DNA from: Acidobacteriota bacterium
Lineage (GTDB): Bacteria > Acidobacteriota > UBA6911 > JACQSX01
Direction of reading: 5' to 3'
Assembly: GCA_036507075.1 (NCBI GenBank)
Contig: DASXQR010000010.1
Span: forward strand, 26,485 to 90,484
Length of the DNA stretch: 64,000 nt
A program made the position numbers and the translations under genes. Each line of letters begins with the position of its first letter. Positions within the stretch are counted from its first letter, which is position 1. The notes under the pieces are model-generated. The model searched no databases, was not told the DNA's origin, and was given only the letters and a program-made list of their open reading frames with translations. Positions 10,271 through 59,200 of the stretch are shown here, one piece after another.

Positions 10271-10313
10271 TGCGCCTTGAAAACCACCGTCGCCTGCGGT
10301 AACCTCGACCCAC

Positions 10314-21149: not shown

Positions 21150-21194
21150 TCCCAAACAACATTTTTCGTTTGTAAACATCGGAACGCTTATCAG

Positions 21195-22223
21195 GTGGTG
21201 CATATGAAATTTTTTAGATACGGCTTGGTTTTGTTCCTTTCTGTTCTCAATTCAGGACCGGCATTCGGGGCGGCGCAAAAAGTGCGTGTGGTATGTACTC
21301 TTCCAACCCTGCGGGCACTGACCGAGGAAGTAGGGGGTAATCGCGTCGATGTGATCAGCCTTGCAAAGGGAGATCAGGATCCGCACTTTGTCACTCCTAC
21401 CCCGGTTTTGATGAAAAAGACCCGGGAAGCGGATCTGTTCCTTGAAAACGGATTCTCGCTCGAATTATGGGCCGATGAGGTGGTCAACGGTTCCGGAAAT
21501 TCGAAGATCTTTCGGGGTACGCCGGGTCGGATTATCGCCGGAAGGAGGATTTCGGCACTCGAAATTCCGTCCGTCATCTCCCGCGAGCTGGGTGACATCC
21601 ATCCGCAGGGAAATCCACATGTCTGGCTCGATCCATTGCTGGCGAAAGTGGAAGCGGAAAACATCGCCGAGGCTCTCAAGTCAGCCGATCCGGCAGGGGC
21701 GAGCTATTATGACTCGCGGCTCGCCGATTTTGAAAGACGGATTGACCTGGCTCTATTTGGGTCGGAGCTTCTCAAGTCGGTGGGAATACAAAAACTCACT
21801 CGACTGGCGATGAGCGGCGAGCTGCATCGTTTCCTGGAGTCCAACAAGCTTACCGGCCAGGCCGGGGGCTGGCTGAAAGCTGCCGAACCTCTTCGAGGAA
21901 AGAAAGCGTACGAGTTCCACAAGGTATGGGTCTATTTCGCCCGTACTTTTGGCCTGCAGTTGGCCGGCACGATCGAAGAGCGGCCGGGGATCCCTCCGGG
22001 ACCGCAACACGTTCGGCAAGTGACCGAAAGAATAAAAGCGGAAAAGATCCCGCTTATTCTGGTGGATAATTTTTACGACGCCGCGCTGCCGCGAAACATC
22101 GCACGGCAAACAGGAGCAAGCGTTGTGGTGCTTCCCAATCAGGTGGATGGCGAGCCGGGGATCAAGACCTACTTTGATCTGATCGACCATATAATTCAGA
22201 AGATCGCGGCGGCGGTTAAGTAG
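21195..22223 (+). CDS. Metal (Zn/Mn) ABC transporter substrate-binding protein, ZnuA/TroA family
   Basis: Signal peptide. ..VVCTLPTLRALTEEVGG..VDVISLAKGDQDPHFV.P.. and ..DPHVWLDP.. are hallmark cluster-9 SBP motifs. Confidence 0.85.
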   Translation: MVHMKFFRYGLVLFLSVLNSGPAFGAAQKVRVVCTLPTLRALTEEVGGNRVDVISLAKGDQDPHFVTPTPVLMKKTREADLFLENGFSLELWADEVVNGSGNSKIFRGTPGRIIAGRRISALEIPSVISRELGDIHPQGNPHVWLDPLLAKVEAENIAEALKSADPAGASYYDSRLADFERRIDLALFGSELLKSVGIQKLTRLAMSGELHRFLESNKLTGQAGGWLKAAEPLRGKKAYEFHKVWVYFARTFGLQLAGTIEERPGIPPGPQHVRQVTERIKAEKIPLILVDNFYDAALPRNIARQTGASVVVLPNQVDGEPGIKTYFDLIDHIIQKIAAAVK

Positions 22224-22229
22224 AAAGTT

Positions 22230-22722
22230 TGCGAGTTGCGGGTTTGCGGGTTGCGGGTTTGCGCGTTGCGGGTTTGCGCGTTTGCGGGTTTGCGCGTTGC
22301 GGGTTTGCGCGTTTGCGCGTTTGCGGGTTTGCGGGTTGCGGGTTGCGGGTTTGCGGGTTACCGGGTTGCGGGTTTGCGCGTTTGCGGATTTGCGGGTTTG
22401 CGGGTTACCGGGTTGCGGGTTTGCGCGTTGCGGGTTTGCGCGTTGCGGGTTTACGGGTTGCGAGTTTGTGGGTTGCGGGGTTTGCGGGCTCAAACGATTC
22501 AGAGCCAGTCGCCGGTTGAAAAGCAGAGATTAAAAATTATTAAAAATTAAAAATTCCGAAAATTTCGAATTTTCAATTTTGAACCCGAACCTAAAGCGAA
22601 ACCCGAAACCTCATAATCCGGAAACCCACAACGTGGAACCCGTAACCCGTAAACTCGTAACCCGGAAACCCATAACCCGTAGACCTGGAACCCGTAACCC
22701 GGAAACCCGTAACTTGTAACTC
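22230..22722. repeat. ~490-bp inverted microsatellite: (GCGGGTT/GCGCGTT)n over ~270 bp, an AT-rich loop, then the complementary (AACCCGY/AACCCGTA)n array
   Basis: Heptamer periodicity is directly visible. The second half is the reverse complement of the first, giving a giant potential hairpin between the metal-binding-protein gene and the permease gene. Confidence 0.9.
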
Positions 22723-22742
22723 AAGCTGTAGCGCGAGGGCGC

Positions 22743-24194
22743 ATGCTCAGTTTTTCAGAACTAGCCTGGATGGTGACGCCGTTTCTGGCGTGTCTGGTGC
22801 TGTCCATCAACCATGTATATCTCGGTATTCACGTAATTGCCAGGAAGGTAATCTTCGTCGATCTGGCGCTGGCTCAAATCGCGGCTCTGGGCGCCACCTA
22901 CGCCATTACGCTTGGATATGATGCCCGCGAAGACGCGCTTAGAGTTTCGCTCTTTTCCCTTGCCTTCACGTTTGCGGGGGCGGGCGCATTCGCCATCGCC
23001 CGCATGCGCAAGGAAAGAGTTCCACAGGAAGCATTCATCGGAATCATTTATGCCGCAGCCTCCGCAGCAGCGATACTGATCCTTTCCAAATCCACCACCG
23101 GCGGTGAAGAACTCAAGCACATGCTGGTCGGCGATGTCCTGCTGGTGACAAACAAAGAAGTGCTTGAGATGGCTCTGCTGTACGCGGCTATCGGACTGTT
23201 TCACGTGATCTTCCGCCGGCAGTTCCTCACTATTTCTCTCGACCCCGAGACTGCGGAGAGGAAGCTCAATATTCGATTCTGGGACATCCTGTTCTATATG
23301 TCCTTTGGCGTGGTGATTACCAAGTCGGTAGCGATCGTCGGCGTGCTTCTGGTGTTCTCTTACCTGGTGGTGCCGGCCGTCATAGCCCAGATGTGGAGCA
23401 ATACGGTTCGCGGAAGACTTTTCCTGGGGTGGCTTGTGGCCATCGTTGCCAGCACCTTCGGCATTCTCTGGTCGTTCCGGGCTGATTATCCGACCGGCCC
23501 AGCCGTGGTTGTAATGCTCTTCCTGTTTCTGGTGCTTTCCGGCGTTATCTATTATCTGCAGCATGCGCCGTCGAAGCTGCGCGCCGCCGGCAACGTTGCC
23601 GCGATTTCACTGGCTGCCGTGCTCTTCTTTGCGGTTCTCTCTCATTTCCGCAAAACCGCTCCAGCGGAAGCCGGTCCGCGCCCGGGGGCGGTGGAGCTGT
23701 TGTTAAACGAGCTCAAGCACGATGATGAAGCGCGCCAACTGGACGGCATTCGCCATTTGGCGGAAATGCGCGATCCCCGCATTGTCCCGGCTCTGGAAAA
23801 TCTGTTAAAGCGCGCGCAGTCCGAGCAGGTCATCGAAGCCGCGGTGGATGCGCTGGCAAAGCAGGAAGATCCCCATGCCGCTCCGGCGCTGCGAGCGGCG
23901 GCACAAACTACTCATGACGATTTTCTGCAGCTTTCCATCGCAAGAGCCCAACTGGCGGTCGGGGACAAAGCGGGCTTTGAGACATTGATGCGGATTCTCA
24001 GCGGCCAGGGAGTAACCGTGGCGCGCCGGCAGGCCAACGAGTTAATCGAACGGTATGCCGGACGCTCATTCGGCTACAATGCCGACTATCCGGCGGCCCA
24101 GAATCGCGCAGCGCTGCAGCGAATCGAAGAATGGTGGAAAAGAGAAGGCAGCCGGCTGCGCTGGGACGCGAAAGCGAAGCGCTTCGTCGGCTAG
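22743..24194 (+). CDS. Metal ABC transporter permease (ZnuB/TroCD family) fused to a C-terminal HEAT-repeat domain
   Basis: N-terminal ~300 aa with 8-9 TM helices typical of ABC-3 permeases. The C-terminal ~170 aa carries PBS-lyase HEAT repeats (..RQLDGIRHLAEMRDPRIVPALENLL.. / ..AAVDALAKQEDPHAAPALRAA..). Confidence 0.8.
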   Translation: MLSFSELAWMVTPFLACLVLSINHVYLGIHVIARKVIFVDLALAQIAALGATYAITLGYDAREDALRVSLFSLAFTFAGAGAFAIARMRKERVPQEAFIGIIYAAASAAAILILSKSTTGGEELKHMLVGDVLLVTNKEVLEMALLYAAIGLFHVIFRRQFLTISLDPETAERKLNIRFWDILFYMSFGVVITKSVAIVGVLLVFSYLVVPAVIAQMWSNTVRGRLFLGWLVAIVASTFGILWSFRADYPTGPAVVVMLFLFLVLSGVIYYLQHAPSKLRAAGNVAAISLAAVLFFAVLSHFRKTAPAEAGPRPGAVELLLNELKHDDEARQLDGIRHLAEMRDPRIVPALENLLKRAQSEQVIEAAVDALAKQEDPHAAPALRAAAQTTHDDFLQLSIARAQLAVGDKAGFETLMRILSGQGVTVARRQANELIERYAGRSFGYNADYPAAQNRAALQRIEEWWKREGSRLRWDAKAKRFVG

Positions 24195-43022: not shown

Positions 43023-44273
43023 TTGAAGATCAAAGTCATTGTACTCCTGCTATTTGCGATGATCATGCTCGCTATAGTAGGTGAGGCGCAGGTACCTAAA
43101 CCAAAATTTAGACGCGTGGCTCAGCGAATGCCCGACAACTATATTGTTGTCTTTAAGGACACTGTATCGACTGCTGATGTTCCCTCAATTGCCCGGCAGA
43201 TCGCTAGCGCACACAATTCTGTGGCCCGCTTTATCTATCAATACGCCCTTAAGGGTTTTGCAGTTCAGGTGTCTGAAGCTGACGCTATTGAGATCAGCAA
43301 CGACTCTCGCGTTGAATGGGTAGAGGAAGATGCCGTCGGATCCATTGTTGAGCAGTGGGGCCTGGATAGGATCGATCAGCGGTATCTACCATTGGACAAT
43401 GTCTATTCCTTTTGGCAACTTGCGGCAAACGTAAACATTTATGTCCTAGATACCGGCATTCGGGCCACTCACTCAGAGTTTGGGGGACGAGTAGTTTCTG
43501 CTTTCGATGCTGTTCAAGCAAACTGCTATTGTGGTTTCACATGTGACAATGCATTCGCTGCTACCCGAGGGCATGGGACGGCTGTTGCTAGTGTTGCTTC
43601 AGGGGCAACATACGGCGTGATTAGAAACGCGACCCTTTATGACGTCAGAGTGGTTAATTGTGACGGCGGTGTGGATTCTGCAAAACTCATCAGCGGAATC
43701 AATTGGGTTACTCAGAATTTCGTCGGTCCTGCGGTTGCGAATATTAGTAGCGCTATCGCTGCGAATGACTCGGTCGATACCGCGGTGCGAAATTCGGCAG
43801 CGGCAGGGGTTCTCTATGTTGTTGGTGCGGGCAATGACAGTACAGACGCAATAGGTTATTCCCCTGCCCGCATGGCCGACATTGAGGTTCTCACCGTTGG
43901 CGCAACCGACATTGTCGATCGACGCGGCCATGACTGGGATCCCCAGAATCCGATAAAAGGTTCGAATTGGGGCTCCGTAGTGGATATCTTTGCGCCAGGT
44001 ACGAATATTAATGTCGCATGGTCAGATAGCGACTCTGATACGCGGACGGGTATAAATGGCACCTCCTTGGCAAGCCCGTACGTTGCAGGAGTTGCGGCGC
44101 ATTACAAGCAGCAGCACCCCGGGGCGAGCCCGACTACGGTTGCTAATTGGATCATCGGTATCGCAACTTCAGGTGTTGTAACTGATCAGCGTCCAGACGG
44201 ATGGATTCTCGGAATTGACCAAGTTCATCCGGGCACGCCCAATCGGCTGCTGTTTCAACCGTTCTCGTTCTGA
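43023..44273 (+). CDS. Secreted subtilisin-like serine protease (S8 family, proteinase-K-like) with N-terminal I9 inhibitor propeptide
   Basis: Signal peptide. Propeptide ..YIVVFKD.. Catalytic triad in context: ..VYVLDTGI.. (D), ..HGTAVASVASG.. (H), ..GTSLASPYVAGVAA.. (S). GC ~48%. Confidence 0.9.
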   Translation: MKIKVIVLLLFAMIMLAIVGEAQVPKPKFRRVAQRMPDNYIVVFKDTVSTADVPSIARQIASAHNSVARFIYQYALKGFAVQVSEADAIEISNDSRVEWVEEDAVGSIVEQWGLDRIDQRYLPLDNVYSFWQLAANVNIYVLDTGIRATHSEFGGRVVSAFDAVQANCYCGFTCDNAFAATRGHGTAVASVASGATYGVIRNATLYDVRVVNCDGGVDSAKLISGINWVTQNFVGPAVANISSAIAANDSVDTAVRNSAAAGVLYVVGAGNDSTDAIGYSPARMADIEVLTVGATDIVDRRGHDWDPQNPIKGSNWGSVVDIFAPGTNINVAWSDSDSDTRTGINGTSLASPYVAGVAAHYKQQHPGASPTTVANWIIGIATSGVVTDQRPDGWILGIDQVHPGTPNRLLFQPFSF

Positions 44274-44336
44274 GGAGCGAAGTGATCGAAGAAAAAAGGC
44301 ACTTGGCGACTTTTTTCCTGCTCTCGCATCTTTTGT

Positions 44337-45563
44337 TTGCGAATCGGCGAAAGCAAATGGTGGGGGGAGATCTTGAGGCGGAAAATATTTCAAATTAAGG
44401 CCTTCTTGCTGTTTTCAGTCTTTTTGTGGCCTAGCTATGGCCAGAATCTTGGTGGAACTGCCTATCAGCAGACCGTCGAGAACACGCTCGCTGGATCGCT
44501 TCTTTATCATTTCGTCGCTCACACCGGCACAATTGACACAGCTTTGAGCCTTTCAAACGTGCGAATAGACCCTTTGACCGCCCCGACTCCTGGTACATTC
44601 GAAATTCTCATGTTTGGCGATGATGGCACTTTTGTAAGAGCTCATTCTAATCAACTGAAGGGTGGAGTATTCAACTTGGTGGGCTCGACCGATCGGGGAT
44701 TGCAAGCAACGGCTGCCTTCTTTCTGGGAGACGTTTTCGCCGATCTCGGTTTGCCTCCAACAACCAGGTTCGTTGGATATGTCAGGATTAATCACAGTTT
44801 CACGAAGGCTGCAGGAACGGCTCAGGTCATGGATCTCGGTGCCGGCCGTGGATTCCGAATAGGCTACACGGCTTCAGAGATTTCGACAGCCCCTGTCATC
44901 AAAAGCATTTCTCCTTCACCTGTTGACGCTGGGGTTGTTGTGACACTGTCCGTGTCGGGTGAGAATTTTTTTTCCGGGCTGACTGCCTCAATTACCACTG
45001 ACGATGGCACAATCGTCGTTCCCCCAAATGATCTGTTGGTTGATTCTTCCAGCCAGATCCGTATACGCGCAATCTTTGCAGAAAAGACAGCAGCATACGC
45101 GGCGACGATTACAGTTAAGAATCCGGACGGCCAAAACAGCTCTGGAATAGTTCAAGTACGAGCATCGAAGAAACCGTTTAGTCAACTGCAAGCACAGCGA
45201 CTCCTCGGGACCTGGGTGTTCACCTACTCGAACAATCGCCCTGCTGAAACATACCGTTTCACAGAGGTCAAGGAAGGCGGGCCGGGCCAGCATCAGGCTA
45301 TTGGTGAACGCCTTCCCACTGGGTTCCCGGGATCTGCGACTACACCCCTGCCAGCCAGCGGTTATTACGATTTCAACCTGAAGAAGTTCGTAATCAATAC
45401 GTTGTATGGTGCTGTCTCCACATCTCACGTGTTTGAATTTAACTCGCCAGGAATGATTTCAGGCTGCTTTTCGAGTGCTTTCATAAAACGTTCAGACACT
45501 GCTGATAGAAACGCAGACGCTTGCGAGGTGACTTTTACCGGAAGACTTGTTTCTCTGCCCTGA
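44337..45563 (+). CDS. Hypothetical secreted protein with a possible IPT/TIG-like domain, low GC
   Basis: Signal-peptide-like LRRKIFQIKAFLLFSVFLWPSYGQ. ..ISPSPVDAGVVVTLSVSGENFFSGLTASIT.. resembles an IPT/TIG Ig-like fold. The true start codon is uncertain. Confidence 0.45.
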   Translation: MRIGESKWWGEILRRKIFQIKAFLLFSVFLWPSYGQNLGGTAYQQTVENTLAGSLLYHFVAHTGTIDTALSLSNVRIDPLTAPTPGTFEILMFGDDGTFVRAHSNQLKGGVFNLVGSTDRGLQATAAFFLGDVFADLGLPPTTRFVGYVRINHSFTKAAGTAQVMDLGAGRGFRIGYTASEISTAPVIKSISPSPVDAGVVVTLSVSGENFFSGLTASITTDDGTIVVPPNDLLVDSSSQIRIRAIFAEKTAAYAATITVKNPDGQNSSGIVQVRASKKPFSQLQAQRLLGTWVFTYSNNRPAETYRFTEVKEGGPGQHQAIGERLPTGFPGSATTPLPASGYYDFNLKKFVINTLYGAVSTSHVFEFNSPGMISGCFSSAFIKRSDTADRNADACEVTFTGRLVSLP

Positions 45564-48575: not shown

Positions 48576-50303
48576 ATGACAGTTAAGAACAAACCCGGAA
48601 TAATCTTTTGTGCAGTGACGCTCTTTGCCGTTGCGGCCGCCATCGGTTTCTTGCTGCCAGTCGGATCCGCGGCGGCCGGGGAGGCGTCGCTGGGCAAGAT
48701 CGATTTTCCCACATCCGGCTCGCCTGAAGCTCAGGCGCACTTCCTGCGAGGCGTGGCCGCTCTTCATTCCTTCTGGTTTGAGGAAGCGCTGGAAGAGTTT
48801 CAGAAAGCCACGCAAGTCCAGCCTGATTTCATGATGGGGTACTGGGGCGAGGCAATGGCCCACAACCATCCACTTTGGGCCGAACAGGATACCGAAGCTG
48901 CACGCAAGGTTGTGCAGAAAATCCGGGACAATGAAAAGTTGACGGCCAAAGAGCGCGCTTATCTGGGCGCAGTGAAGGCGCTCTACGGAGAAGGGGACAA
49001 ACTGACGCGCGACAAGGCGTACTCGGCAGCGATGGAGAAGATGTATCGTGACCATCCCGACGACCTGGAAGTAGCCACTTTCTACGCGCTTTCTCTGCTG
49101 GGAACAGTCCGTCCCGACGACAAGGGTTTCCGCCGCCAGATGCAGGCGGGCGCCATTGCAATGGACGTGTCTGCAAAGAATCCAAACCATCCCGGGGCGG
49201 CGCATTTCATCATCCATTCCTTTGATGATCCCGAGCACGCGATTCTGGCGCTTCCGGCGGCGCGTCGCTATGCTCAGATCGCGCCCGAGGCGCATCATGC
49301 GCGCCATATGCCCGCGCATATTTTCCTTCAGCTCGGAATGTGGCCGGACGCGGCTGCTTCCAACGAGTCGGCCTGGTCGGCGTCCGACGCGTGGGTCAAG
49401 AGCAAGTCCCTTCCGCTCATCCGGCGGGATTATCACAGCCTTCACTGGCTGACCTATGTTTACCTGCAGCAGGGCCGCTACGCCAAAGCCGACCAGCTTC
49501 TGAACCTGATGCGAAAAACCATGACCGAATCGACCGATGATTCCAAGTTTCGGCCTAATTACTACGCCAACAACTTCGCCGACATGGCATCCATTTTCGT
49601 GGTGGAAACGGAGAAGTGGAACCTGGCCGAGACGATCTTCCAGTCCGCGAACAAGGCCTCCGAACCTGAAGCCGCCGGCGCTTCCGGCGGGCATGCCGGC
49701 CACGGCGGGAATCCAACCGACGCGACGGCCGCAGTGACGCGGCGATCCAACGCCAGCCAGGTGCTGCCCGTTTTTGTGCGCGGCCTGGCGGCGGCCAGAA
49801 CCTCGCCCGCGCAGGCGGAAAAGGCGATCGCGGAATTGAAGTCGTTAATGGCAAAAGGCAGCAGCGCGGACAACGCGAGCAATCGGAATGCCGGCGTGGG
49901 GGAGATCAGAGTGCTGGAAGTGGGCGCGCTGGCCAGTGCCTACAACGGGGATTATGCGGCGGCGATTGAAGCGATGAAAAAAGCAACCGCGCTGGAAGAA
50001 AGTTTGTCGCCCCCTTCAGGACCGCCACCGCTGATCAAGCCGTCACATGAACTCTTCGGTGAAATCCTGCTGCGCGCGGGGCAGCCAAAGGAAGCTTCCA
50101 GGCAGTTTGCCGTTTCCCTTCTCCGCCAGCCCAATCGCGCGCGGTCGCTGCTCGGAGCGGCGCGCGCCGCAGCCATGGCCGACGACCGGCCGGCGGCCGC
50201 CGGCGCTTACTCCAGTTTCCTGGCTAACTGGAAGCAGGCCGATGCCGGCTTGCCGGAGATTGCCGAGGCGCGTAATTACGTGGCCCAGGCCAACAGGCCG
50301 TGA
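48576..50303 (+). CDS. Secreted TPR-like repeat protein, function unknown
   Basis: Signal peptide/TM anchor. Alpha-helical repeat composition throughout. Coding-like, with good RBS (GGAGG). Confidence 0.65.
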   Translation: MTVKNKPGIIFCAVTLFAVAAAIGFLLPVGSAAAGEASLGKIDFPTSGSPEAQAHFLRGVAALHSFWFEEALEEFQKATQVQPDFMMGYWGEAMAHNHPLWAEQDTEAARKVVQKIRDNEKLTAKERAYLGAVKALYGEGDKLTRDKAYSAAMEKMYRDHPDDLEVATFYALSLLGTVRPDDKGFRRQMQAGAIAMDVSAKNPNHPGAAHFIIHSFDDPEHAILALPAARRYAQIAPEAHHARHMPAHIFLQLGMWPDAAASNESAWSASDAWVKSKSLPLIRRDYHSLHWLTYVYLQQGRYAKADQLLNLMRKTMTESTDDSKFRPNYYANNFADMASIFVVETEKWNLAETIFQSANKASEPEAAGASGGHAGHGGNPTDATAAVTRRSNASQVLPVFVRGLAAARTSPAQAEKAIAELKSLMAKGSSADNASNRNAGVGEIRVLEVGALASAYNGDYAAAIEAMKKATALEESLSPPSGPPPLIKPSHELFGEILLRAGQPKEASRQFAVSLLRQPNRARSLLGAARAAAMADDRPAAAGAYSSFLANWKQADAGLPEIAEARNYVAQANRP

Positions 50304-50452
50304 CGAATGGGGAATGCGGAATGCGGAATGGGGAATGCGGAATGTGGAATGAGGAATGAGGAATGAGAAGTGGTTTGCTCCAAGTTGTGAAGAGATAACT
50401 TGAAGTTATTCCGTATTCCGCATTCCCAATTCCGCATTTCGCATCCCCATTT
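50304..50452. repeat. Inverted microsatellite: (GAATGSG)n x ~9, loop, (CSCATTC)n
   Basis: GAATGGGGAATGCGGAATGCGGAATGGGGAATGCGGAATGTGGAATGAGGAATGAGGAATGAG ... TTCCGTATTCCGCATTCCCAATTCCGCATTTCGCATCCCCATT. The halves are reverse complements. Confidence 0.85.
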
Positions 50453-50455
50453 GAT

Positions 50456-50746
50456 TCACCCCAGGTAGTCGAGCCTTTTGATCTCTTCTGCCAGCGGTTT
50501 TACGATCTCCTCAACGAAGCGCAGGTGGTCGGGATGGACTCGATACCGGTCCAGCGCCGCTTCATCCTCAAAGTACATCACCAGCGCGCACTGGTAAGGA
50601 TCGTCTTTGTAGATGGAAACCCCCGCCGTCAGGTTTCTCACACCCGGCACTGCAGGCAAGCGCGTGCGAGCCTGGCGCAACAGATTCTCTCGCTGGGACG
50701 CCGTGGTCGATGACTTCAATTTATACAGTACGATGTGGGTCAGCAT
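50456..50746 (-). CDS. Dabb-family stress-responsive protein (dimeric alpha/beta barrel)
   Basis: MLTHIVLYKLK...L..VPGV......YDCALVMYFEDEAALDRYRVHPDH..FV is the typical Dabb pattern. Confidence 0.75.
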   Translation of the reverse strand: MLTHIVLYKLKSSTTASQRENLLRQARTRLPAVPGVRNLTAGVSIYKDDPYQCALVMYFEDEAALDRYRVHPDHLRFVEEIVKPLAEEIKRLDYLG

Positions 50747-50756
50747 TTGTCCGTGT

Positions 50757-51045
50757 CCGTGGTCGGTTGTCAGTTGTTACAGGTTTTCCGGTTGCGGGTT
50801 TTCGGGTTACGAGTTTTCACGTAGGGCGCGTTCGATGGTTACGTGATGTTTGTGGGTTTCAAATCCTGCCAAAGCATCGAATCTGACATCTTTGGATCCG
50901 CCATTTTCAATCGAACCGAATCCGCAACCGGTGACCCGAAAACCCGTAACCTGAACACTCGTAACTCGAAATCTCGTAACCCGAAAACCCGCAACTCGAA
51001 AACCCGCAACCCGAAAACCTGTAACAACTGACCACGGACAACGGA
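50757..51045. repeat. Inverted microsatellite related to 22230-22722: (GGTTTTCGG/GGGTTACGA)n, unique ~130-bp loop, (CGAAAACCCGYAAC)n, flanked by GTTGTCCGTGG-family motifs
   Basis: The repeat arms are reverse complements. The flanks (CCGTGGTCGGTTGTCAGTTGTTACAG / CTGTAACAACTGACCACGGACAACGGAC) are also inverted copies. Confidence 0.85.
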
Positions 51046-52839
51046 CTACTTAGGAATCATCCAGGGGAAAACGTAGGCCTGCAGCAGCACAATCAATCCC
51101 ATGATGCAGGCCAGGGCGACTGAGTGCCAGAATACAAAACGCAGGATTGCTCCCTCATGACCGCTCTGGTTGGTAGCCGCCGTGCTCACCACGATACTTT
51201 GCGCGTCCACCATCTTGCCCATTACCCCGCCGGTGCTGTTGGCGACAGTGATCAGGACCGGATCCAGAGAAAGCTGCTGGGCCGTGATCTTCTGCAGGCT
51301 TCCGAACAGAACGTTGCTGGAGGTATCCGAGCCGGTCAGCGCCACGCCCAGCCATCCGAGCAGCGCGGCAAAAAACGGGTACGCCACTCCGGTGTGAGTG
51401 AATGCCAGACCCAGCGTCGCATCCGTCCCGCTGTAGCGCGTGACATACCCGAGCGCCAGCATGCAGGCGATGGTCAGCAGCGGCCACTTCATGCGGACCA
51501 GCGTTCTTCCGGCCACGCGCGCCAGAATGCGCAGCCGGATTCTCAAATATAGGGCGGTGGCCAACGCAGCCACGAGAATTCCCGTGCCTGAGGCGCTCAG
51601 CCAATTGAAGCTGTACACGGCAGCTTCGGCGTTTTTCTGGCGATAAGGGCCGCTTCCGATTTGACCTCGATCAATCTGAACCGGAACTACGGGAAAGTCC
51701 CGGTACACCATTTTATGCAGCAGCGGCACCTGGATCTGCGGACTGAGCGCCGGGTTCGGCGGACTTGGTTTTCCGGTGGCGCGATAAGCGCGCAAACTGG
51801 CCGGACCGCCATTCAGAAAGGCCTTCACCGGAGGCAGGCCCCAGCAGAAGACGAAAACGCTCAGAAACACCCAGGGCATCCACGCTTTTACAACCTGCCC
51901 CCGCGAATAGGTTGCCGTCTCAGAGGATCGGCTCGCCGGCATCGCCCGGGCCGGAACCGGGACATTCGGCGCCGCTGCATTTGCGTCCGGCATCTTATTA
52001 AGATTCTCCGGAAATTCCCAATTGTCTTTTGGCTTCCACCAGGCTGCAAATCCCGCCGTGATAAAGAGACTCACCAGCCCCCCCAGGATGTCCACCAGCT
52101 CCGGACCAACGTAATTACTCCAGAAAAACTGAACCACAGCGAAGCTTCCACCGCTGACAAGCACCACCGGCCAGACGCCCTTGAAGCCTTTCCAACCGCT
52201 CATGGTCACGACCAGCCAGATCGTCACCAGCAAAGAAACAAACGGCAACTGCCGGCCTGCCATCTGTCCCAGAATGAAGGGGTCCTGCTGGGTCACGGCG
52301 GCCAGCGTGAGAATTGGAGTTCCGAGGGCGCCAAACGCCACGGGCGCCGTGTTGGCGATCAGGCAAAGACCGGCGGCATAGAGCGGCGGGAATCCCAGGC
52401 CCATCAACAGCGCCGCGCAAATGGCAACAGGTGTTCCAAAGCCGGCGGCGCCTTCGATAAACGCGCCAAAGCTGTAGCCGATCAGCAGCGCCTGCACGCG
52501 GCGATCCGCCGACAGCGATGCCACCGAATGCTTGATGATTTCAAACTGGCCGGTTTCCACCGTCAGGTTGTACAGGAAGACGGCCGTGATAATGATCCAG
52601 CCGATCGGAACCAGGCCAAATGCCGCTCCATAACCGGCCGAGGCCAAAGCCGTGGCAGCAGGCATTCGATAGAACACAATCGCGATCAGCAATGCAGCAG
52701 CCAGGCCACTCATCGCCGCCCACTGCGCCGGCACTTCAAAAGCAGCGAGCAGGACGAGCAAAACCACGATTGGCAGCGCCGCCAGCAGCGTGGAAATTAC
52801 AGCGTTACCTGCCGGATTATAAATCTGGATCCATTCCAT
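51046..52839 (-). CDS. lctP: L-lactate/glycolate permease (LctP family)
   Basis: MEWIQIYNPAGNAVISTLLAALPIVVLL.. / ..GYSFGAFIEGAAGFGTPVAICAALLMGLGF.. are hallmark LctP motifs. ~14 TM helices. Confidence 0.92.
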   Translation of the reverse strand: MEWIQIYNPAGNAVISTLLAALPIVVLLVLLAAFEVPAQWAAMSGLAAALLIAIVFYRMPAATALASAGYGAAFGLVPIGWIIITAVFLYNLTVETGQFEIIKHSVASLSADRRVQALLIGYSFGAFIEGAAGFGTPVAICAALLMGLGFPPLYAAGLCLIANTAPVAFGALGTPILTLAAVTQQDPFILGQMAGRQLPFVSLLVTIWLVVTMSGWKGFKGVWPVVLVSGGSFAVVQFFWSNYVGPELVDILGGLVSLFITAGFAAWWKPKDNWEFPENLNKMPDANAAAPNVPVPARAMPASRSSETATYSRGQVVKAWMPWVFLSVFVFCWGLPPVKAFLNGGPASLRAYRATGKPSPPNPALSPQIQVPLLHKMVYRDFPVVPVQIDRGQIGSGPYRQKNAEAAVYSFNWLSASGTGILVAALATALYLRIRLRILARVAGRTLVRMKWPLLTIACMLALGYVTRYSGTDATLGLAFTHTGVAYPFFAALLGWLGVALTGSDTSSNVLFGSLQKITAQQLSLDPVLITVANSTGGVMGKMVDAQSIVVSTAATNQSGHEGAILRFVFWHSVALACIMGLIVLLQAYVFPWMIPK

Positions 52840-53049
52840 CGTATTCGAAGGGGAACGAAGCCGGACTATACCAGTGGAATTTCGAATTCAAAATTGAAAA
52901 ATTATCAAAGTTAAAGTTTCGTACTTTGGTGGTCAAAGAATTTGAAACCGGCTGAGAGCGATAGGGTAGGGAGAGCCGCTAGGCTCCCCCACCCCTTCGA
53001 ACCGGACGAGCGGATTTCCCGCATCCGACTCTCCAGTTGATAGGTCACC

Positions 53050-54186
53050 TCATAGAGGATTGACAGGCTGCGTGATGGGCTGCTTCCAGCGAAAGCAGTC
53101 CTTCAGCAGCAAAGAAAGCGTTGGTCCAGCGTTGATGATCCTGCCAGCCGCGTGAAACTCCTTTCCTGCCACTCCAAGCCCATTACGGCCCCTTCCTAGC
53201 TCGTTCGGAAGTGTAAACATTCTGACTCCCCCGCCTATTAGTGGGTCATTAGGATTCAAAAAAGTTCCGCTTGCCACTGTTTCTGGGGGTGACCAATGAA
53301 CTCCGTGATCCAGGGATGTGGCCATTCTAATGGAATTGGTAGTGAAATCAGTCCACAAAAGATAGACATCACCGGTTGTTGAATTTACGACAATATCAGG
53401 GCCTTGAACCCAGCCAGTCGTTGCGGTATATGAGCCGAGAAAGCTGTTTCCACCATCTAAACTAACTGCCACGAACAGTGTGTTTTGGTTTGCATCCAGG
53501 TTATCAACTCGGTTCCACGTGACATAAACATACCCGAGACTCCCTGGATCCCAAGAGACAGCGCAGAACGGCTTGTCTAAAACGTAGCGGTTGCTTCCAT
53601 TGGATACGATAACAGAAGCCGAAAGCCATGAAACTCCTCCGTCATCCGATCGCCAAAGCACGATCGCGTTAGGTGGGTCGTGAGCCGGACCATTACTGAC
53701 AAGCCCAGAGCAATACATCCGAAGTGGCGCTATGCCTGTTGTGTATGGATTGATATCCAGCCAAGGATCCGCTGACACCCAGTAGAATGGAGGCATTTGA
53801 AGCTGACCGCGGCTGAAATTCAGAAAGTCGGTCGTAGTCGAGTACCACACGGTCGGGATACCTTGCGCGTCATACTTAATGTGGCTCACGGTTGTGAAGT
53901 CAATTGAATTACGTCTCAAAGAGCAAATCGATGGTTCGACATCTTGAAGACTGTCCGATGTAGCGTTAATCGTATAGAGTGACGACGTTGACGGAGTCGT
54001 TGGGCCCCGAGGTTGTACTGATGTCGGTGGAAATTGTGGCGACCGTCCCAAGGCTCTAAGAGTGATGAAGTAAAGTGTCCCGCTGAGGGTATTCAGGCTC
54101 TTCTCGCTTATTTGAAAAGCCTGGCCATGGATACCTAGAATTAGTATGATTATTGACAATAAAATAAGAATAGGAAGTCTTTTCAT
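53050..54186 (-). CDS. Secreted BNR/Asp-box repeat protein (sialidase/glycosyl-hydrolase-like beta-propeller), low-GC island
   Basis: Signal peptide. Asp-box-like motifs SDDGGVSW, SLDGGNSF and SLDHGVHW (S-x-D-x-G-x-T/S-W/F). GC ~45%. Confidence 0.6.
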   Translation of the reverse strand: MKRLPILILLSIIILILGIHGQAFQISEKSLNTLSGTLYFITLRALGRSPQFPPTSVQPRGPTTPSTSSLYTINATSDSLQDVEPSICSLRRNSIDFTTVSHIKYDAQGIPTVWYSTTTDFLNFSRGQLQMPPFYWVSADPWLDINPYTTGIAPLRMYCSGLVSNGPAHDPPNAIVLWRSDDGGVSWLSASVIVSNGSNRYVLDKPFCAVSWDPGSLGYVYVTWNRVDNLDANQNTLFVAVSLDGGNSFLGSYTATTGWVQGPDIVVNSTTGDVYLLWTDFTTNSIRMATSLDHGVHWSPPETVASGTFLNPNDPLIGGGVRMFTLPNELGRGRNGLGVAGKEFHAAGRIINAGPTLSLLLKDCFRWKQPITQPVNPL

Positions 54187-54225
54187 AAGAGCTCTCCAAG
54201 ATTCAGAATATTAGAACCTATAGCC

Positions 54226-55056
54226 TTACTGGCTAATTAAACCAGAATTGGCCTCCTGAAAATGTTCTCCAGCACTGCTGGTCGAAACGTCAACCGCGGT
54301 AACTCCGATATCGCGGTTGGCACGTATTTCGAGCGTCCCTCCAAAGAACAATGTCACTTGGGGGAATAAGTCAGTTAGAGTCTTAAGCGTGTTGCCACCC
54401 GCCGGAATGGATACCGCTGCTTGACCTACCTGATTACCAGATCCGTCTCGAAGAACCAAAATTACGTCTGCCTGACCGTCAGAGCCCAGGGGAAGCGCAA
54501 GCCCAATGCCCAGACTCTCGAAGATATTTGGGTCAGCTTGCTGGCCGAGAGGCACGAATCTAGCATCCATAAAAAACCGCTTGCCTAGACTGCCTGGCCG
54601 TAAGAGCAATCGAGCACTTACGATAATAGAGGGAGGATTAAAAAGAGTATCGGAGCTATGAGTGATTTCTTCTTGGACAATGACTGGCACATTCGAGGTT
54701 ACGAGCATGCACCCCGCAATGATAGAGTCTCGAAAGTCAAAGTCTATGTTGCGCCTAAATGAGAACGGAGCAATCTGGAAGGTCGTTACGAACACAGGAA
54801 GTGGTTTGATTTCCTTCCCTAACGGATCAAGAATCATAAAAGAAATCGTCGCCGTCGATGAGTTTGGGTTAACTACATTAAAATACGAGTGATAGGCATC
54901 ATAAACAGAGAAAGCGGGATTGCTTGGATTCCGCGCTATTGAGACACGTACATAAAGTGGAAAGAAGGCTGTGGTGGCTGCCCCTGATTGAGCCATCATC
55001 AGACTAGGGCAAAGGCTTAGGATTCCGAGTAGGCAAAATACTGGCTTCATGGTCAA
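54226..55056 (-). CDS. Hypothetical secreted protein (low-GC island)
   Basis: Signal peptide (MTMKPVFCLLGILSLCPSLMMAQS). Protein-like composition, no recognisable motifs. Confidence 0.45.
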   Translation of the reverse strand: MTMKPVFCLLGILSLCPSLMMAQSGAATTAFFPLYVRVSIARNPSNPAFSVYDAYHSYFNVVNPNSSTATISFMILDPLGKEIKPLPVFVTTFQIAPFSFRRNIDFDFRDSIIAGCMLVTSNVPVIVQEEITHSSDTLFNPPSIIVSARLLLRPGSLGKRFFMDARFVPLGQQADPNIFESLGIGLALPLGSDGQADVILVLRDGSGNQVGQAAVSIPAGGNTLKTLTDLFPQVTLFFGGTLEIRANRDIGVTAVDVSTSSAGEHFQEANSGLISQ

Positions 55057-55129
55057 GGTCTCCTTTTGACCTTTAGATTGGTCTTTGAGTGGTGGGCATG
55101 CCGGTAACGCAAATGAGGAAGGTCACCTG

Positions 55130-55228
55130 CACCAAAATACCGGCAGATATGTCTTGATAACATCCAGACCTGCAAAAGCTCGGCGGATGATATATACTAA
55201 GGATGCCGCGGCATTAAAAATGTCTAAA
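55130..55228. repeat. Direct repeat copy 1 (~100 bp, ..CCAAAATACCGGCAGATATGTCTTGATAACATCCAGAC..TAAGGATGCCGCGGCATTAAAAATGTCT..)
   Basis: ~80% identical to 55659-55760. Together they flank a ~430-bp segment carrying the lctP 5' fragment. Confidence 0.55.
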
Positions 55229-55519
55229 GAAAACTTTATCTTAGATCCTACGTGGGCCCCCCCACGACCCAGCGGAAGGCCTCCAAACGGCCTCGCCCTA
55301 ATATTTAAGTAGCATGATTTCTGTTCCTAAACCATGTCAACTCTCTTTTTTGTGAAAATCATTAAAATTGGCCACGGCCTGCCCAAAACAGTACCGAACT
55401 GATTAGATATCTAGATCGTAGAACCTCATGATGGCATAGCTTTGGGGACAGTATTTGGGGTCAAGGGGTTCCAGCCTGAATCTACGTTGACCGAGTGCCG
55501 ACGGCCGGAAACGGTGCTT

Positions 55520-55640
55520 CTCACGACCATGTTCACCAGCAGCGTGGAAATTACGGCGTTACCTGCAAAATTGTAGATTTGAACCCACTCCATGGTGAGC
55601 GAAGGGAAACGAAGTCGGACAAAAGAATTGGAACCAGCGC
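55520..55640 (-). pseudogene. Diverged duplicate of the lctP 5' end (first ~19 codons MEWVQIYNFAGNAVISTLL plus ~40 bp of leader)
   Basis: ~80% nucleotide identity to 52780-52880 over ~100 bp. The reading frame is preserved for 19 codons, then unrelated sequence follows. Confidence 0.6.
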
Positions 55641-55658
55641 ATCCAGCGGTAGGATCTG

Positions 55659-55760
55659 CACCAAAATTACGGCAGATATCTGCTGATAACATCCAAACGC
55701 CCAAAAAAGCCTAAGGATGCCCTACTTCGCTAAGGATCCTGCGGCGTAGGAAATGTCTGC
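55659..55760. repeat. Direct repeat copy 2 (see 55130-55228)
   Basis: Sequence similarity to copy 1. Confidence 0.55.
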
Positions 55761-55845
55761 TCGGCGGCAACTCGGGTGGCCATGTTAGACCGCCCTACGA
55801 GCGCTTTTCAAAGCTCAGTCACGCGACTTGAGTCATCACACCAAT

Positions 55846-56258
55846 AGTGCCGCGTGGCGTAAGCCCGCGTCCAGCGAATCGACCCGCCTTCTCCACGTCA
55901 GTGGTCGCGTGGCGTGAGCCTGCGGCGCGCGCATCGAGCGGCCTGAGGCTAAAGTGCGACACTAATGGATCAGAGATGACGGTCGTAAGAGCGCCGCGGG
56001 TTGAAGAACCTGTAAAAAAATTGGACGCCACCGGGCTTGTCCCGCTGGTGAACGCGATTCTTCACTAGGATACAAACCCCTACGGAGCTCCCGGAACACT
56101 GGCGAAGTATTTGTGGGCACGCGTTCTAGTGAAGAATCATACTCACCAGCGGGACGAGCCCGGAGGCGTCGATTTTTTCGCAGGTTCGACGTCACGTGGT
56201 ACTGACGGGGAGGAAGTGGGTCGATTCGCCACACGCGGGCTGACGCCACGCGGTACTG
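55846..56258. repeat. MITE-like element: ~70-bp terminal inverted repeats (AGTGCCGCGTGGCGTAAGCCCGCGT..GAATCGACCCGCCTTCTCCACGTCAGTGG.. and its reverse complement) flanking a ~260-bp core, with an internal GCGTGGCGT subrepeat
   Basis: 55846-55915 is ~80% identical to the reverse complement of 56175-56245. No ORF of significance lies inside. Confidence 0.5.
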
Positions 56259-56285
56259 CAAGAGGCAGAGCCGGCTCAGCGCCTG

Positions 56286-59200
56286 TCACCGTACGGTCGC
56301 TTCCGAGGGGCGCTTTGTTTCCTTCAGGCTGCTCAGGAATTCGAGCAGGTCGGCCAACTGCTGTTCCGTCATGGTGGAGACGAGATCTTCGGGCATTAGA
56401 GAGAGCTTGCTGCGGCGCCGCGATGTGATCTCGGACGGCTTGAACCGCAGGATTTCGTTTGCGTCCGTCCGCACAGCGACGCGCTGCGGCGTGTCTTCCA
56501 TGATGATCCCGATGACATCGCCTTGCGTTTTGGTTTCCAGTATCCACACGTAGTACTCCGGCGCGATGCCGGCGCTCGGATTTAGAATGGAGTCGAGCAG
56601 GGCGTCCTTGCCCAATTTGCTGCCGATTACCGACAGATCCGGACCAACCAGCCTCTTGCCTCCGATGCTGTGGCAGGAACTGCATTTCGGACCTGTGGCG
56701 GACAAAAAGACCCTGCGTCCCCTTTCCCGGTCGGCAGGACGCGAGAACAACGCCCACGAAGGCGGAAGCGGGGTTTTGCCTCTGGTAGTGGCAAGCGGCA
56801 ACAGCTTTTCCGCCCGCGACTTGATCGCAGGATTGCGGCTGGCGTTGGTGACCACGCTTGCCGCGCGTTTCAACTCCGGCGGTAATTGGCCGTTCTGTTC
56901 CAGGTTCAGCAGCAGGGTCATTCCCTGTTCGGATCGACCCAGCACCTTTACCGCTTCAGTGCGGATCTCGTTGGGCGCGTCGCTGCGAATCAGGCGTCCA
57001 AAACGCGTCTCCAGATCTTTGGGCCGGGAAAAACCGATGGCACGTATCGCCGCCAGCCTGATGGGCATCGGTCCGGTATGGGAAAAGCGCTCCAATTCCG
57101 GCAGATAAACGGGGTCGCGCGTCTTCCCCAACGCGTGAATCGCGGTGATGCGGACTTCATCGGCGGTGGACGCGGCCTGGATAATGGCGATCAGCTCCGG
57201 TCCGTAAGATGTATCCTCCATGTCATCGGCCAGTTCCAGGGCGCGGGCCTGCAACTCCGGAGTGTGCAAGGCTTTTTTAATTACCGCTGCGGTGGCGGGA
57301 TGCTTGCGAAGCGGAATCCACAGGCTGAAAAGCTGGCGGGAAAAAACGTCGAAGGCATGCTGCGACAACTCGGGCGGGTTCCCTTCGATGTTGAGAAATT
57401 CGGCGACCGCCTTTCCCGCTTCGACATCGGGCATCACGGCCAGCGCGTCGAGCGCCTCTGTCCTTTGGGCGATGGAGAGCTCGGGACTCTGGAAGCTGGC
57501 AATCAGGTAAGGCACGGCATCGGAGGGCCTGAATTCCCAGATAAAGCGAGCCAGCGTGGAATCCCACTTTCCCGGATACAGATCTCGCAGCCGGCCATAC
57601 AGCAGATTCTCTTTGCCGCGCGCGCTGATTCCCAAAGCTTCAAGGTACCAGCGGTCCTTTCCGTCATACCGCCGACAGAGCTCAATTAAGGGACCGACAG
57701 CCATCTGAGGTTCCGCGTGCTGCAAAGCGATGGCGACCTCACGGCGAACCTGGGGCGAAGGATCCTTCGCAAGGGAACTGATCAGCCGGTTCGCGTCATT
57801 CTCTTTGCAGGCGCGCAGTATCCGGGTCGCCAGGATGCGAAAATCAGGATCCGGATCCTGCAACGTCTCCAGCACCTTCTTTTCTCCTTCACCGGGAATC
57901 CCACCCAGCAACCAGAGAGCGCGAGCCCTGAGAATTCTGTCTCCGCTTCCCAGCATGGATTGAAGCATGCCTGCGGCGGCCGGGCCCCGCTTTTTGAATT
58001 CCATGTAGGCGAGATAACGAACCGACTGCGCCGGAGAGCTCAACGCGGCCGCCAATCCTTCACTCGACTTGAGATCGACCACGGGATTGCGGCTTCTGAA
58101 GCCTGCGGGGGCGAGCCTGTAAATCCTACCCTGGCTGATGTCCACCATCTGATGGCCGCCTACACCCGGATCGTACCAATCGCTGATATAGACGGCGCCA
58201 TCCGGTCCGACGCAAACATCCGAAGGACGGAACCATGTGTCCTGGGACTCTACGGTGTTTTCGATGTCAATCGCGTACCCTGCTCCGTCCCGGGAAAGGG
58301 AATAAGTATTGATCAGCCGCTTCCCTGCTTCGGCGTGAATCAGCTGGCCCCGGTGCTTCTCCGGCAGAAGCCTTCCTTCGTAAACCAGGAGACCGCAGGG
58401 AGCGCCCGCGCCGGTTCTCTTGATATTGGGAACAACTCCGGGATTCTCAGAATGAAAATGAGTTCCCTTGTCTTCCCGCCAGCTCCTGCCGCCGGGTCCC
58501 CAGTAACCAAAATTTCCGCCTTCCATCACGTAATTCACCCGCACCCAGGCGTTCCCATCGTCGTCATTGTCGGTCTGCCAGATATTGCCGAATGAATCCA
58601 GTGCCAGCTCATAAGGATTGCGGAAGTTATGCGCCAGGACAGTGAGCCCCGTGCCGTCCGGGTTCACTCTTAAAGCACAACCGGCAAAGTACGGACCTGA
58701 TTTGGAACTGACCAAGCGGGTTCCGGACCGGTCTGTGATGTCAAACCCCTGGTCTCCGTTGTTCAGGTAGTAACGTCCGTCATGACCAAACACTACGGCA
58801 TGCACGCCATGGTCGTGATCGATTCCGCGCCACCCGGTCAGCAATACCTCTTTCTTTACAATGTTGTCCTGATCGTCCTTGGTAAAGATGATCAGGTCCG
58901 GTGATTGTGAAACGATTACCTGGTTACCGAGAACGGCGATGCCCAACGGCGAGCGAAGACTGGGATCCTGGGCGAAAACTTTGGTCTTATCCGCTTTTCC
59001 GTCACCGTCGGTGTCTTCCAATATCAGGATGCGATCACCCTTGGCGCGATAGTCCGGCTTGCCAAAAAGAGTGCGCCGATAATTGACAGCCTCCAGGACC
59101 CAGATTCTGCCGCGCGCATCAACATCAATGTTTGTGGGATTGACCATGCTCGGCTCGGAAGCCCACAGCGTGATTTCCAGGCCATCGGCAGTCTTCAATC

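Follow-up and report, generated by a model that had tools for sequence, protein, structure and literature searches.

How did a short tract of low-GC DNA with two genes for secreted proteins come to lie directly upstream of the L-lactate permease gene lctP in an uncultured Acidobacteriota genome, with a second, diverged copy of the start of lctP on its far side? The original prediction for this 64-kb stretch of DNA, called the window below, was that an insertion had duplicated its target and that the two copies had then diverged, leaving a small horizontally acquired island with no recognisable integrase. The parts of the locus follow each other in the order R2-L2-X-R1-orfA-orfB'-intron-L1, in which two families of direct repeats, R and L, are interleaved (Table 1). 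Below we describe these parts and then the history that they suggest.

Table 1. Features of the low-GC tract and of the adjoining lctP gene, in window coordinates
Feature	Position	Strand	Description	Remarks
lctP	51046..52839	minus	L-lactate permease, intact, 597 aa	Pfam PF02652 (Lactate_perm), E 7e-162
L1	52782..52879	minus	native lctP leader (40 nt) and codons 1-19	reference copy of the 98-nt repeat
AT-rich spacer	52880..52960	minus	GC 0.33	from L086 alignment and segment GC
Group II intron 3' remnant	52961..53033	minus	domains V and VI, 73 nt	Rfam RF00029
orfB'	53050..54186	minus	3'-truncated BNR/sialidase-like beta-propeller gene, 378-aa ORF	
orfA	54226..55050	minus	intact gene, 274-aa secreted protein with two beta-sandwich domains	
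R1	55127..55226	minus	direct repeat, ~100 nt	end 77 nt upstream of orfA start
X	55227..55535	minus	309-nt spacer between L2 and R1	GC 0.48
L2	55536..55633	minus	relic of lctP leader (40 nt) and codons 1-19	2.75 kb upstream of L1
R2	55656..55759	minus	partner of R1, ~100 nt	outer limit of the low-GC tract

By segment GC, the low-GC tract upstream of lctP extends from 52880 to 55759, about 2.9 kb. The GC content is 0.47-0.50 in 1.5-kb windows across 53001-55500, which are the lowest values anywhere in the 64 kb (mean 0.559; z -2.3 to -3.2), and the tetranucleotide distance over the tract reaches z +2.9 against the 64-kb window. The GC3 values are 0.46 for orfA and 0.48 for orfB', compared with 0.67-0.71 in lctP, the DUF7133/haem gene, Dabb and TPR. 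The overall GC of the two genes is 48-49%, and that of the neighbouring genes is 58-60%; the contrast of 45% with 60% that had been predicted was close. R2 and L2 share the low GC of the islet. These values support a tract that is, in its composition, foreign at synonymous sites. A second low-GC3 tract is found at 43023-45563, with a secreted subtilase gene and a second gene without assigned function (GC3 0.49-0.50), so low GC may partly be a trait of a gene class in this genome.

Contigs that were assembled separately (L081/L090, L082, L083 and L091) show the same arrangement with 99.7-100% identity, and thus it is not an assembly artefact. Exact-protein look-ups gave matches from the same population only, with an identical islet arrangement, and the lctP product is identical to the one annotated in an NCBI Acidobacteriota MAG. 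The population SNPs, 9 per 12.5 kb and most of them in tandem-repeat arrays, are too few to judge constraint.

Does the tract carry any machinery for its own movement? No integrase or transposase domain was recognised by Pfam in lctP or the ORFs of 52840-56286, the only matches being Lactate_perm in lctP and a weak BNR_2 in orfB'. ARAGORN predicted neither tRNA nor tmRNA genes anywhere in the 64 kb, and the tract ends have no att features, no inverted repeats, and no short exact target duplications. The flanks consist of core-type genes to 10 kb or more. A promoter and terminator scan returned no more sites than were found in shuffled sequences. The predicted islet without an integrase, a compositional outlier whose genes have foreign GC3 and whose sialidase-like gene has only distant homologues, is supported by these results.

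The lctP gene itself is intact from its predicted start and has a native GC of 0.60. Its nearest relative is an orthologue with 84% amino acid identity on a 2.6-kb contig, L086. The L1 leader includes an extended -10 element, TGGTATAGT, and conservation with L086 extends through leader and promoter to about 52903-52908 (about -65/-70), the -35 region included. The lctP-proximal 25-30 nt or so of the AT-rich spacer are native promoter, with the -35 region, and the other ~50 nt, unassigned, contain the junction with the foreign tract; the conserved promoter thus places the intron remnant within about 50 nt of the boundary. Since lctP retains its own conserved promoter, it is probably unaffected by the islet.

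L2 aligns with L1 without gaps, and the two agree at 77 of 98 nt (79%); in a BLAST comparison with the 64-kb window the match has an E of 3e-17, so the diverged copy that had been predicted is significant, with slightly narrower limits. It translates as MEWVQIYNFAGNAVISTLL, compared with MEWIQIYNPAGNAVISTLL. L2 has a destroyed -10 element, no -35 element, and Phe in place of the conserved Pro9, and its reading frame continues for 37 codons into X and then stops. One end of L2 is cut at codon 19/20 and, because the ancestral -35 region is missing from the other, L2 is cut at both ends. The similarity of L1 and L2 stops at -40, whereas the homology of L1 and L086 continues to about -65/-70; therefore, the joint between R2 and L2 is a novel junction and not the ancestral empty site. 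There are no further lctP remnants in the 64 kb. As direct repeats, L1 and L2 enclose 2656 nt, with orfA, orfB', and the intron remnant.

The differences between L1 and L2 are unevenly spread, with 20 in the first 67 nt and only one in the last 31 (permutation p = 0.04). A three-way comparison with L086 shows that, over codons 1-9, the distance from L2 to L1 is roughly the same as that from L086 to L1. Over codons 10-19, L2 hardly differs from L1, and this holds even for synonymous sites that differ in L086. Of the 10 differences in the coding part, seven affect third codon positions (binomial p = 0.02). This bias was considered as proof that L2 originated in a working gene, but it is weak after polarisation with L086, which leaves three L2-specific coding changes at third positions and two elsewhere, and these numbers are not informative.

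The second family of repeats brackets L2, as predicted, within the refined limits given in Table 1. R1 and R2 share a 51-nt core at 82% identity (E 6e-8) and are about 75% identical over ~100 nt; their gapped local alignment has 104 columns, sharp ends, and a score of 62, far above the 17.9 ± 2.1 of shuffled sequences. R2 contains the palindrome GCAGATATCTGC and is located 63 nt from the ATG of L2, a promoter-like distance, and the sequence that follows R1 starts with GTGAC. We rejected R as a structured RNA, as Rfam has no match to it and its folding z values range from -0.4 to -2.2. A pattern scan of viral contigs showed no other copies of R. X has no match in Pfam, Rfam, or BLAST, and Pfam gave neither an IEP remnant nor any other domain in the L2 ORF, X, or the tail of orfB'.

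Both genes of the islet encode proteins with hydrophobic, signal-like N-termini, in agreement with the two secreted-protein genes originally predicted between lctP and the copy of its start. The ATG of orfA at 55050 has AAGGAG 9 nt upstream. No Pfam family matches orfA, but HMMER gave 36 full-length matches with 26-35% identity, and the AF2 model (pLDDT 78) has a domain that matches TM1070 (1nc7) with a TM of 0.78. The gene is intact, and its product belongs to a small family of secreted proteins with two beta-sandwiches. For orfB', the likeness is to GH33 sialidases and BNR_2 six-bladed beta-propellers. It has three Asp-box motifs (SDDGGVSW, SLDGGNSF, and SLDHGVHW), and bacterial sialidases are the best Foldseek matches (E 1e-8; TM-score by query length about 0.45) of a model whose AF2 core is residues 84-313. 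However, its propeller is incomplete, and the BNR_2 match, at 20.8 bits, is below the gathering score of 31.4.

The full-length homologues of orfB (P0002-P0007) are 509-539 aa long. From the alignment and the tblastn end-points, the homology of orfB' with them ends at about 53143-53206 (about residue 346 of 378). With some 140 residues lost from the C-terminus, the propeller is unable to close. The tail of the ORF, 53050-53147, is non-homologous and unstructured (AF2 pLDDT <40), and the stop codon is 17 nt before domain V (DV) of the intron. The homologues are only 38-46% identical and occur in lower-GC (42-52%) contigs of other organisms, in unrelated contexts. A conserved partner gene of ~160 aa lies downstream of the orfB homologue in three of four related loci; this gene is absent here. 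The idea of orfA-orfB as a conserved cassette was rejected, as an orfA homologue is not nearby in four BNR loci.

What, then, is the short sequence between orfB' and the lctP promoter, at the edge of the foreign tract that faces lctP? It matches the full RF00029 model (1-77) with 42.5 bits, compared with a gathering score of 40, and an E of 5e-5 for the whole window. Its DV, GAGAGYCGGATGCGGGAAATCCGC, is 91-95% identical over 37-44 nt to the DV of full-length, plasmid-borne introns. Those introns score 46.5-48.5 bits with RF00029 and, in L171/L172, 91 bits with RF02003 (D1-D4), and their IEP stops 10 nt before DV. The bulged A of domain VI is present in the remnant. However, the DV catalytic triad is mutated from AGC to AGU (GAGAGUCGG in the window vs GAGAGCCGG in the relatives), and the bulge region carries another change. 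No group-II-D1D4 family matched at E up to 1 in 50000-57000, and the 5' parts of the related introns show no BLAST similarity to the window. An IEP or reverse transcriptase was not detected either, as no tblastn match of two ltrA proteins had an E below about 1, and Pfam found no family in any frame upstream of DV. No parent intron with the DV pattern was found in viral contigs or in metagenome contigs, the latter evidently without the source samples.

Remnants of RmInt1-type group II introns have been described in Sinorhizobium (PMC4181065), and truncations of bacterial group II introns are frequent (PMC4028801). Like such remnants, the copy in the window is a 3'-terminal V-VI fragment in an intergenic, mobile-DNA context, with no IEP, no domains I-IV, and inactivating substitutions. 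Unlike them, it has only 73 nt left and is fused to a truncated non-intron gene, and pattern scans of viral and metagenome contigs found no sibling full-length copy. Neither the intron remnant nor the truncation of the BNR gene was part of the original prediction. Both are marks of a segment associated with mobile elements, part of which has since been lost by deletion.

Is there a relative in which the site is empty? The islet sequences are absent from the 436 nt upstream of the homologous promoter in L086, where the contig ends. From the lctP side, 80 loci in genome contigs (best 74% amino acid identity) have no shared neighbours and no islet DNA. From the other flank, none of 79 DUF7133/HEAT/cytochrome c loci in metagenome contigs has lctP, orfA, or orfB downstream, and in an 83% relative of the DUF7133-side flank the contig ends inside the gene. 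Neither orfA nor orfB occurs in these 80 lctP and 79 DUF7133 loci, which belong to more distant relatives and show no synteny. The anatomy of the locus, its foreign composition, the truncations, and the incomplete group II intron identified at its edge are observations. As the searches turned up no empty site in any relative, the insertion itself (rather than a loss from the relatives), the order of events proposed below, and the mechanism of recombination are inferred.

We suggest, with a probability of about 0.6, that the sequence from ~52910 to 55760 is the eroded rest of a larger foreign segment of lower GC, which landed just upstream of the native lctP promoter in this lineage. DNA with the two genes and a group II intron would have entered with no integrase of its own, by recombination through a short patch of lctP homology that was either already present or formed in the process. 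The route would be insertion-duplication of the Campbell type or homology-facilitated illegitimate recombination. Introns of this type occur on plasmids, beside IS elements. A later deletion may have joined the truncated sialidase-like gene to the 3' end of the intron, with loss of the last ~140 codons of orfB and of its ~160-aa partner gene, and the repeats would subsequently have diverged. Besides the lack of an empty-site relative and the second low-GC3 tract at 43023-45563, two observations count against this account. The interleaved R and L repeats require more than one event under every model tried, and the repeat divergence of 21-25% fits neither a recent event nor a simple clock when set against the un-ameliorated GC3.

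In Campbell-type insertion-duplication and homology-facilitated illegitimate recombination, direct repeats of a chromosomal segment flank the insert, and an integrase is not needed. The locus is similar in that the truncated gene copy L2 is on one side and intact lctP, behind L1, is on the other. It differs in that the repeats are 79% identical, the distal flank is not recognisably native, and the R family is interleaved; the -35 region shared with L086 adjoins L1, and not L2, as a native flank there would demand. A narrower form of integrase-independent entry is decidedly improbable. A foreign circular or linear segment, bordered by a group II intron of the plasmid type, would have had ~100 bp from the lctP promoter and start of a relative, gained at a previous residence, as its sole homology for recombination beside lctP in a new host. 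L2, the mosaic identity of L1 and L2, and the intron at the junction would be its footprints, and the R elements would be a portable promoter or operator now driving orfA.

Could L2 instead be what remains of a second lactate permease gene, a resident displaced by an incoming segment with lctP or a tandem paralogue, the rest of which was deleted or overwritten by low-GC DNA? Most of the divergence between L1 and L2 would then have arisen while both genes worked. The excess of third-position differences (7 of 10), the distance over codons 1-9, where L2 is about as far from L1 as L086 is, and the location of R2 and R1 at 63 and 77 nt from the ATGs of L2 and orfA are consistent with such a history. 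However, only 19 codons are left, with no other lctP remnants in the 64 kb, the polarised coding changes are three to two, and codons 10-19 nearly equal L1 even where L086 differs synonymously. Furthermore, none of the 80 relatives' genomes has a tandem lctP pair near the locus, and we consider this origin of L2 unlikely. It is quite unlikely that a single insertion duplicated its target, the lctP leader and 19 codons, that the copies then diverged neutrally, and that the islet is all that lies between them, although L1 and L2 do flank orfA, orfB', and the intron remnant as direct repeats, one dead and one intact. A duplication of 98 nt is far longer than those made by transposases, and terminal inverted repeats and short exact target duplications are absent. 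R2, upstream of L2, is not ancestral sequence, and the -35 region is common to L1 and L086 but not to L2. R2 is also repeated, as R1, within the supposed insert and has its low GC, and the 20 and 1 differences in 67 and 31 nt are not the even spread of neutral divergence. With the repeats interleaved, L2 cut at both ends, and both R2 and L2 islet-like in GC, the target duplication is the part of the original prediction that is not borne out in its stated form.

If there had been no horizontal transfer, orfA and orfB would be old resident secreted-protein genes of low GC, and the repeats would be debris of local slippage or duplication. The gene pair at 43023-45563, one member of which encodes a secreted subtilase, has a similar GC3 (~0.49-0.50), the tract has no mobility gene, and the repeats are old (21-25% diverged). 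We nevertheless regard this as very improbable, in view of a GC3 deficit that is synonymous and accompanied by a tetranucleotide shift, nearest orfB homologues of only 38-46% identity in unrelated contexts, the adjoining remnant of a plasmid-type group II intron, and the absence of orfA and orfB from all 80 lctP and 79 DUF7133 loci of relatives. The whole tract might also be read as a group II intron in which orfA and orfB, as cargo, replace the reverse transcriptase, from the L2|X or R1 junction to ~52961. The distance from the R1 end (55126) to domain VI (52961), 2166 nt, is intron-sized, GTGAC is directly after R1, and the orfB' stop 17 nt before DV resembles the IEP stops at 10 nt in full-length relatives. 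This reading is effectively refuted because domains I-IV are absent, with no D1-D4 match at E up to 1 where the relatives score 91 bits. In addition, the 76-nt gap between R1 and orfA is far too short for domains I-III, X is unlike the 5' parts of related introns, the DV triad is mutated, and orfB' is truncated, which leaves no intact cargo.

The eroded foreign segment that we prefer resembles the small genomic islets without an integrase, with atypical GC and GC3, accessory secreted-protein genes, a location between core genes, a patchy distribution, and signs of decay. Unlike those islets, it has neither a tRNA or att site nor a mobility gene, and the repeats are interleaved, diverged, and 98-104 nt long, rather than short, exact, and flanking, and one of them is a fragment of the neighbouring gene. 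A classical site-specific genomic island has the atypical composition seen here, but its integrase and tRNA/att site are absent. The transposase, terminal inverted repeats, and short exact duplication of a transposon or IS element are absent as well, the duplication here being 98 nt at 79% identity.

What does this locus tell us? The islet is ordinary genome debris and not a new type of element. A new mechanistic question would arise only if an empty site or a donor were to show integration mediated by a homology patch. The main value of the finding is annotation hygiene for an uncultured Acidobacteriota genome, in which orfB should be flagged as truncated and the group II intron remnant and the lctP pseudo-fragment should be added. 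The locus also illustrates, within a small space, how foreign DNA that has no integrase may lodge beside a core gene, decay, and leave behind relics of gene starts and tails of introns.

The islet beside lctP, the lactate permease gene (Lactate_perm, Pfam E = 7e-162), is small, partly decayed and foreign, and carries no integrase; it is edged by a group II intron remnant and contains a relic of the lctP start. All of the elements described in the original prediction, a low-GC tract next to lctP, a duplicated lctP 5' end and direct repeats bracketing that copy, were confirmed. The lowest GC of the 64 kb falls in this tract (z = -2.3 to -3.2), and a k-mer check showed it to be an outlier in tetranucleotide composition as well. 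GC3 is 0.46 and 0.48 in the two tract genes, versus 0.67-0.71 in lctP and the flanking core genes. The repeats R1 and R2, the lctP-start copy L2 and the segment X have GC of 0.44-0.48, and beyond 55760 GC is back to 0.57-0.60. The window belongs to an uncultured Acidobacteriota population. The same DNA is present at 99.7-100% identity in independently assembled JGI and Logan contigs, and an NCBI 'MAG TPA: Acidobacteriota bacterium' has an annotated protein identical to that of lctP.

Layout of the interval upstream of lctP, in order on the minus strand, the transcription direction of all interval genes
Feature	Position	Strand
DUF7133/HEAT/cytochrome c gene stop	56286	
Near-perfect hairpin, 412 nt	56257-55846	
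R2, direct repeat	55759-55656	minus
Spacer, 22 nt		
L2, relic copy of lctP start	55633-55536	minus
X, 309 nt, origin unassigned		
R1, direct repeat	55226-55127	minus
76 nt with AAGGAG ribosome-binding site		
orfA, secreted protein gene	55050-54226	minus
orfB', truncated sialidase-like gene	54186-53050	minus
Spacer, 16 nt		
Group II intron domains V-VI	53033-52961	minus
Spacer, 81 nt		
L1, native lctP leader (40 nt) and codons 1-19	52879-52782	minus
lctP, continuing from L1	52839-51046	minus

L1 and L2 align without gaps and agree at 77 of 98 nt (BLAST E = 3e-17). The lctP promoter region, including the extended -10 TGGTATAGT and the -35, is common to the window and L086, the contig with the nearest lctP relative (84% amino acid identity), out to about 52903-52908. 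The likeness of L1 to L2 ends at -40, within this conserved region; in L2 the -10 element is gone, no -35 is present, and Phe stands where Pro9 is conserved. Thus, L2 is a fragment cut at both ends, and the R2/L2 junction is newly formed and does not represent an ancestral empty site. L2 still opens a 55-codon reading frame (MEWVQIYNFAGNAVISTLLVNMVVRSTVSG...) into X (55426-55593, minus strand). Since this frame matches no Pfam family and is without an intact promoter element, its expression is improbable. The approximately 100-nt repeats around L2 have sharp ends in a gapped local alignment, which scores 62 versus 17.9 ± 2.1 in shuffles.

A group II intron domain V-VI is the sole Rfam match above the gathering score in the window (42.5 bits; gathering score, 40). 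Over 37-44 nt, its domain V shares 91-95% identity with the domain V of plasmid introns of Planctomyces, Azotobacter, Burkholderia and Sphingobium. In the Planctomyces and Azotobacter introns, the two examined in full, the ltrA reverse transcriptase ends 10 nt before domain V, and the RF02003 D1-D4 match scores 91 bits. In the window, a D1-D4 match is lacking at E up to 1, an intron-encoded protein has left no trace, and the catalytic triad is changed from AGC to AGU; this is therefore a dead 3' remnant. Remnants and truncations of group II introns are common in bacteria, and this piece is of the same sort (PMC4181065, PMC4028801). Given how far the promoter is conserved, no more than about 50 nt separate the intron 3' end from the edge of the non-conserved tract nearest lctP.

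The orfA gene is intact. A HMMER search of 1.84 billion representatives gave 36 relatives, several full-length at 26-35% identity, and the model (pLDDT 78) predicts a signal-like helix and two β-sandwich domains of unassigned function. Homologues of orfB (38-46% identity) have 509-539 residues, and the homology stops at about 53143-53206. In the AlphaFold model, residues 84-313 are predicted to form part of a sialidase-like propeller, and the last 65 or so residues have pLDDT < 40. The orfB gene is truncated, with about 140 C-terminal residues missing. In three of the four related loci examined, the homologues are followed by a conserved partner gene of about 160 residues, which is absent here. 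Each of the loci L084, L085, L088 and L089 has a gene for a BNR_2-like secreted protein of 416-538 residues followed by a gene for about 130-170 residues, and homology can be detected among three of these partners (26-29% identity); the pair may be a conserved two-gene module of unassigned function.

No empty site was found among the best 80 lctP loci in species-representative genomes, which reach no more than 74% identity and have no neighbours in common with the window. At 79 metagenomic loci reached through the other flanking gene, no lctP, orfA or orfB lies downstream, and the sequence of the single 83% relative breaks off within the gene. Pattern scans gave no match in viral contigs (domain V and R) or in metagenome contigs (domain V; a collection evidently without the source samples). 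We therefore infer insertion from composition, homologue distribution and the mobile-element remnant, over a rival reading of the tract genes as resident low-GC genes.

The original prediction held for an integrase-less foreign islet, but its simple target duplication is at odds with the interleaving of the repeats, the truncation of L2 at both ends and the absence of inverted repeats and of a transposase. Another rival takes L2 as the stump of a displaced or paralogous lctP. Of the coding differences between L1 and L2, 7 of 10 are at third positions (p = 0.02), a statistic that loses most of its force when the changes are polarised with L086, and the differences are concentrated ahead of codon 10 (permutation p = 0.04). 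Both statistics are weak; they favour recombination between diverged lctP starts over neutral decay of one duplicate. An intron carrying the cargo is effectively excluded, the window being without a D1-D4 match. In the best-supported reading, lower-GC foreign DNA with a plasmid-type group II intron at its border would have settled immediately upstream of the lctP promoter, with no dedicated integrase involved. A deletion would later have taken the 3' third of the sialidase-like gene, the partner gene and most of the intron, and the repeats would have diverged by 21-25% since.

Other features were seen in the window. The 412-nt hairpin is an imperfect palindrome with nested arms, 69-85% complementary (DNA fold -135.9 kcal/mol, z = -13), and holds an internal sub-repeat, CGCGTGGCGTnAGCC. 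It occurs once in the window and matches no Rfam family; a MITE-like element and a giant terminator are both conceivable. Positions 1-436 of L086, upstream of lctP, are full of GC-rich palindromic repeats, with GCCCGCCCG...CGGGCGGGC units and an inverted pair of about 40-nt blocks; their sequence bears no relation to that of the palindrome in the window, yet they occupy the same relative position. The small Dabb gene (50456-50746) has palindromic arrays of short tandem units on both sides (50305-50448 and 50755-51046). One array consists of GAATGSG heptamers and contains most of the SNPs that distinguish population contigs; the other consists of 15-nt GTAACCCGAAAACCC-type units (81-nt arms, 81% complementary). 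A second compositionally atypical gene pair (43023-45563), in a 42-46 kb stretch with GC of about 0.50, encodes a 408-residue protein without a Pfam match (GC3 0.50) and a secreted subtilase that has an I9 propeptide (GC3 0.49). Either this pair is a further foreign islet, or it shows that certain genes of this genome, secreted-protein genes included, run low in GC. The strongest tetranucleotide outliers, 9000-11500 and 21000-23500 (z = 2.3-4.1), have normal GC.

The islet beside lctP thus adds one more case to known kinds of genome debris.
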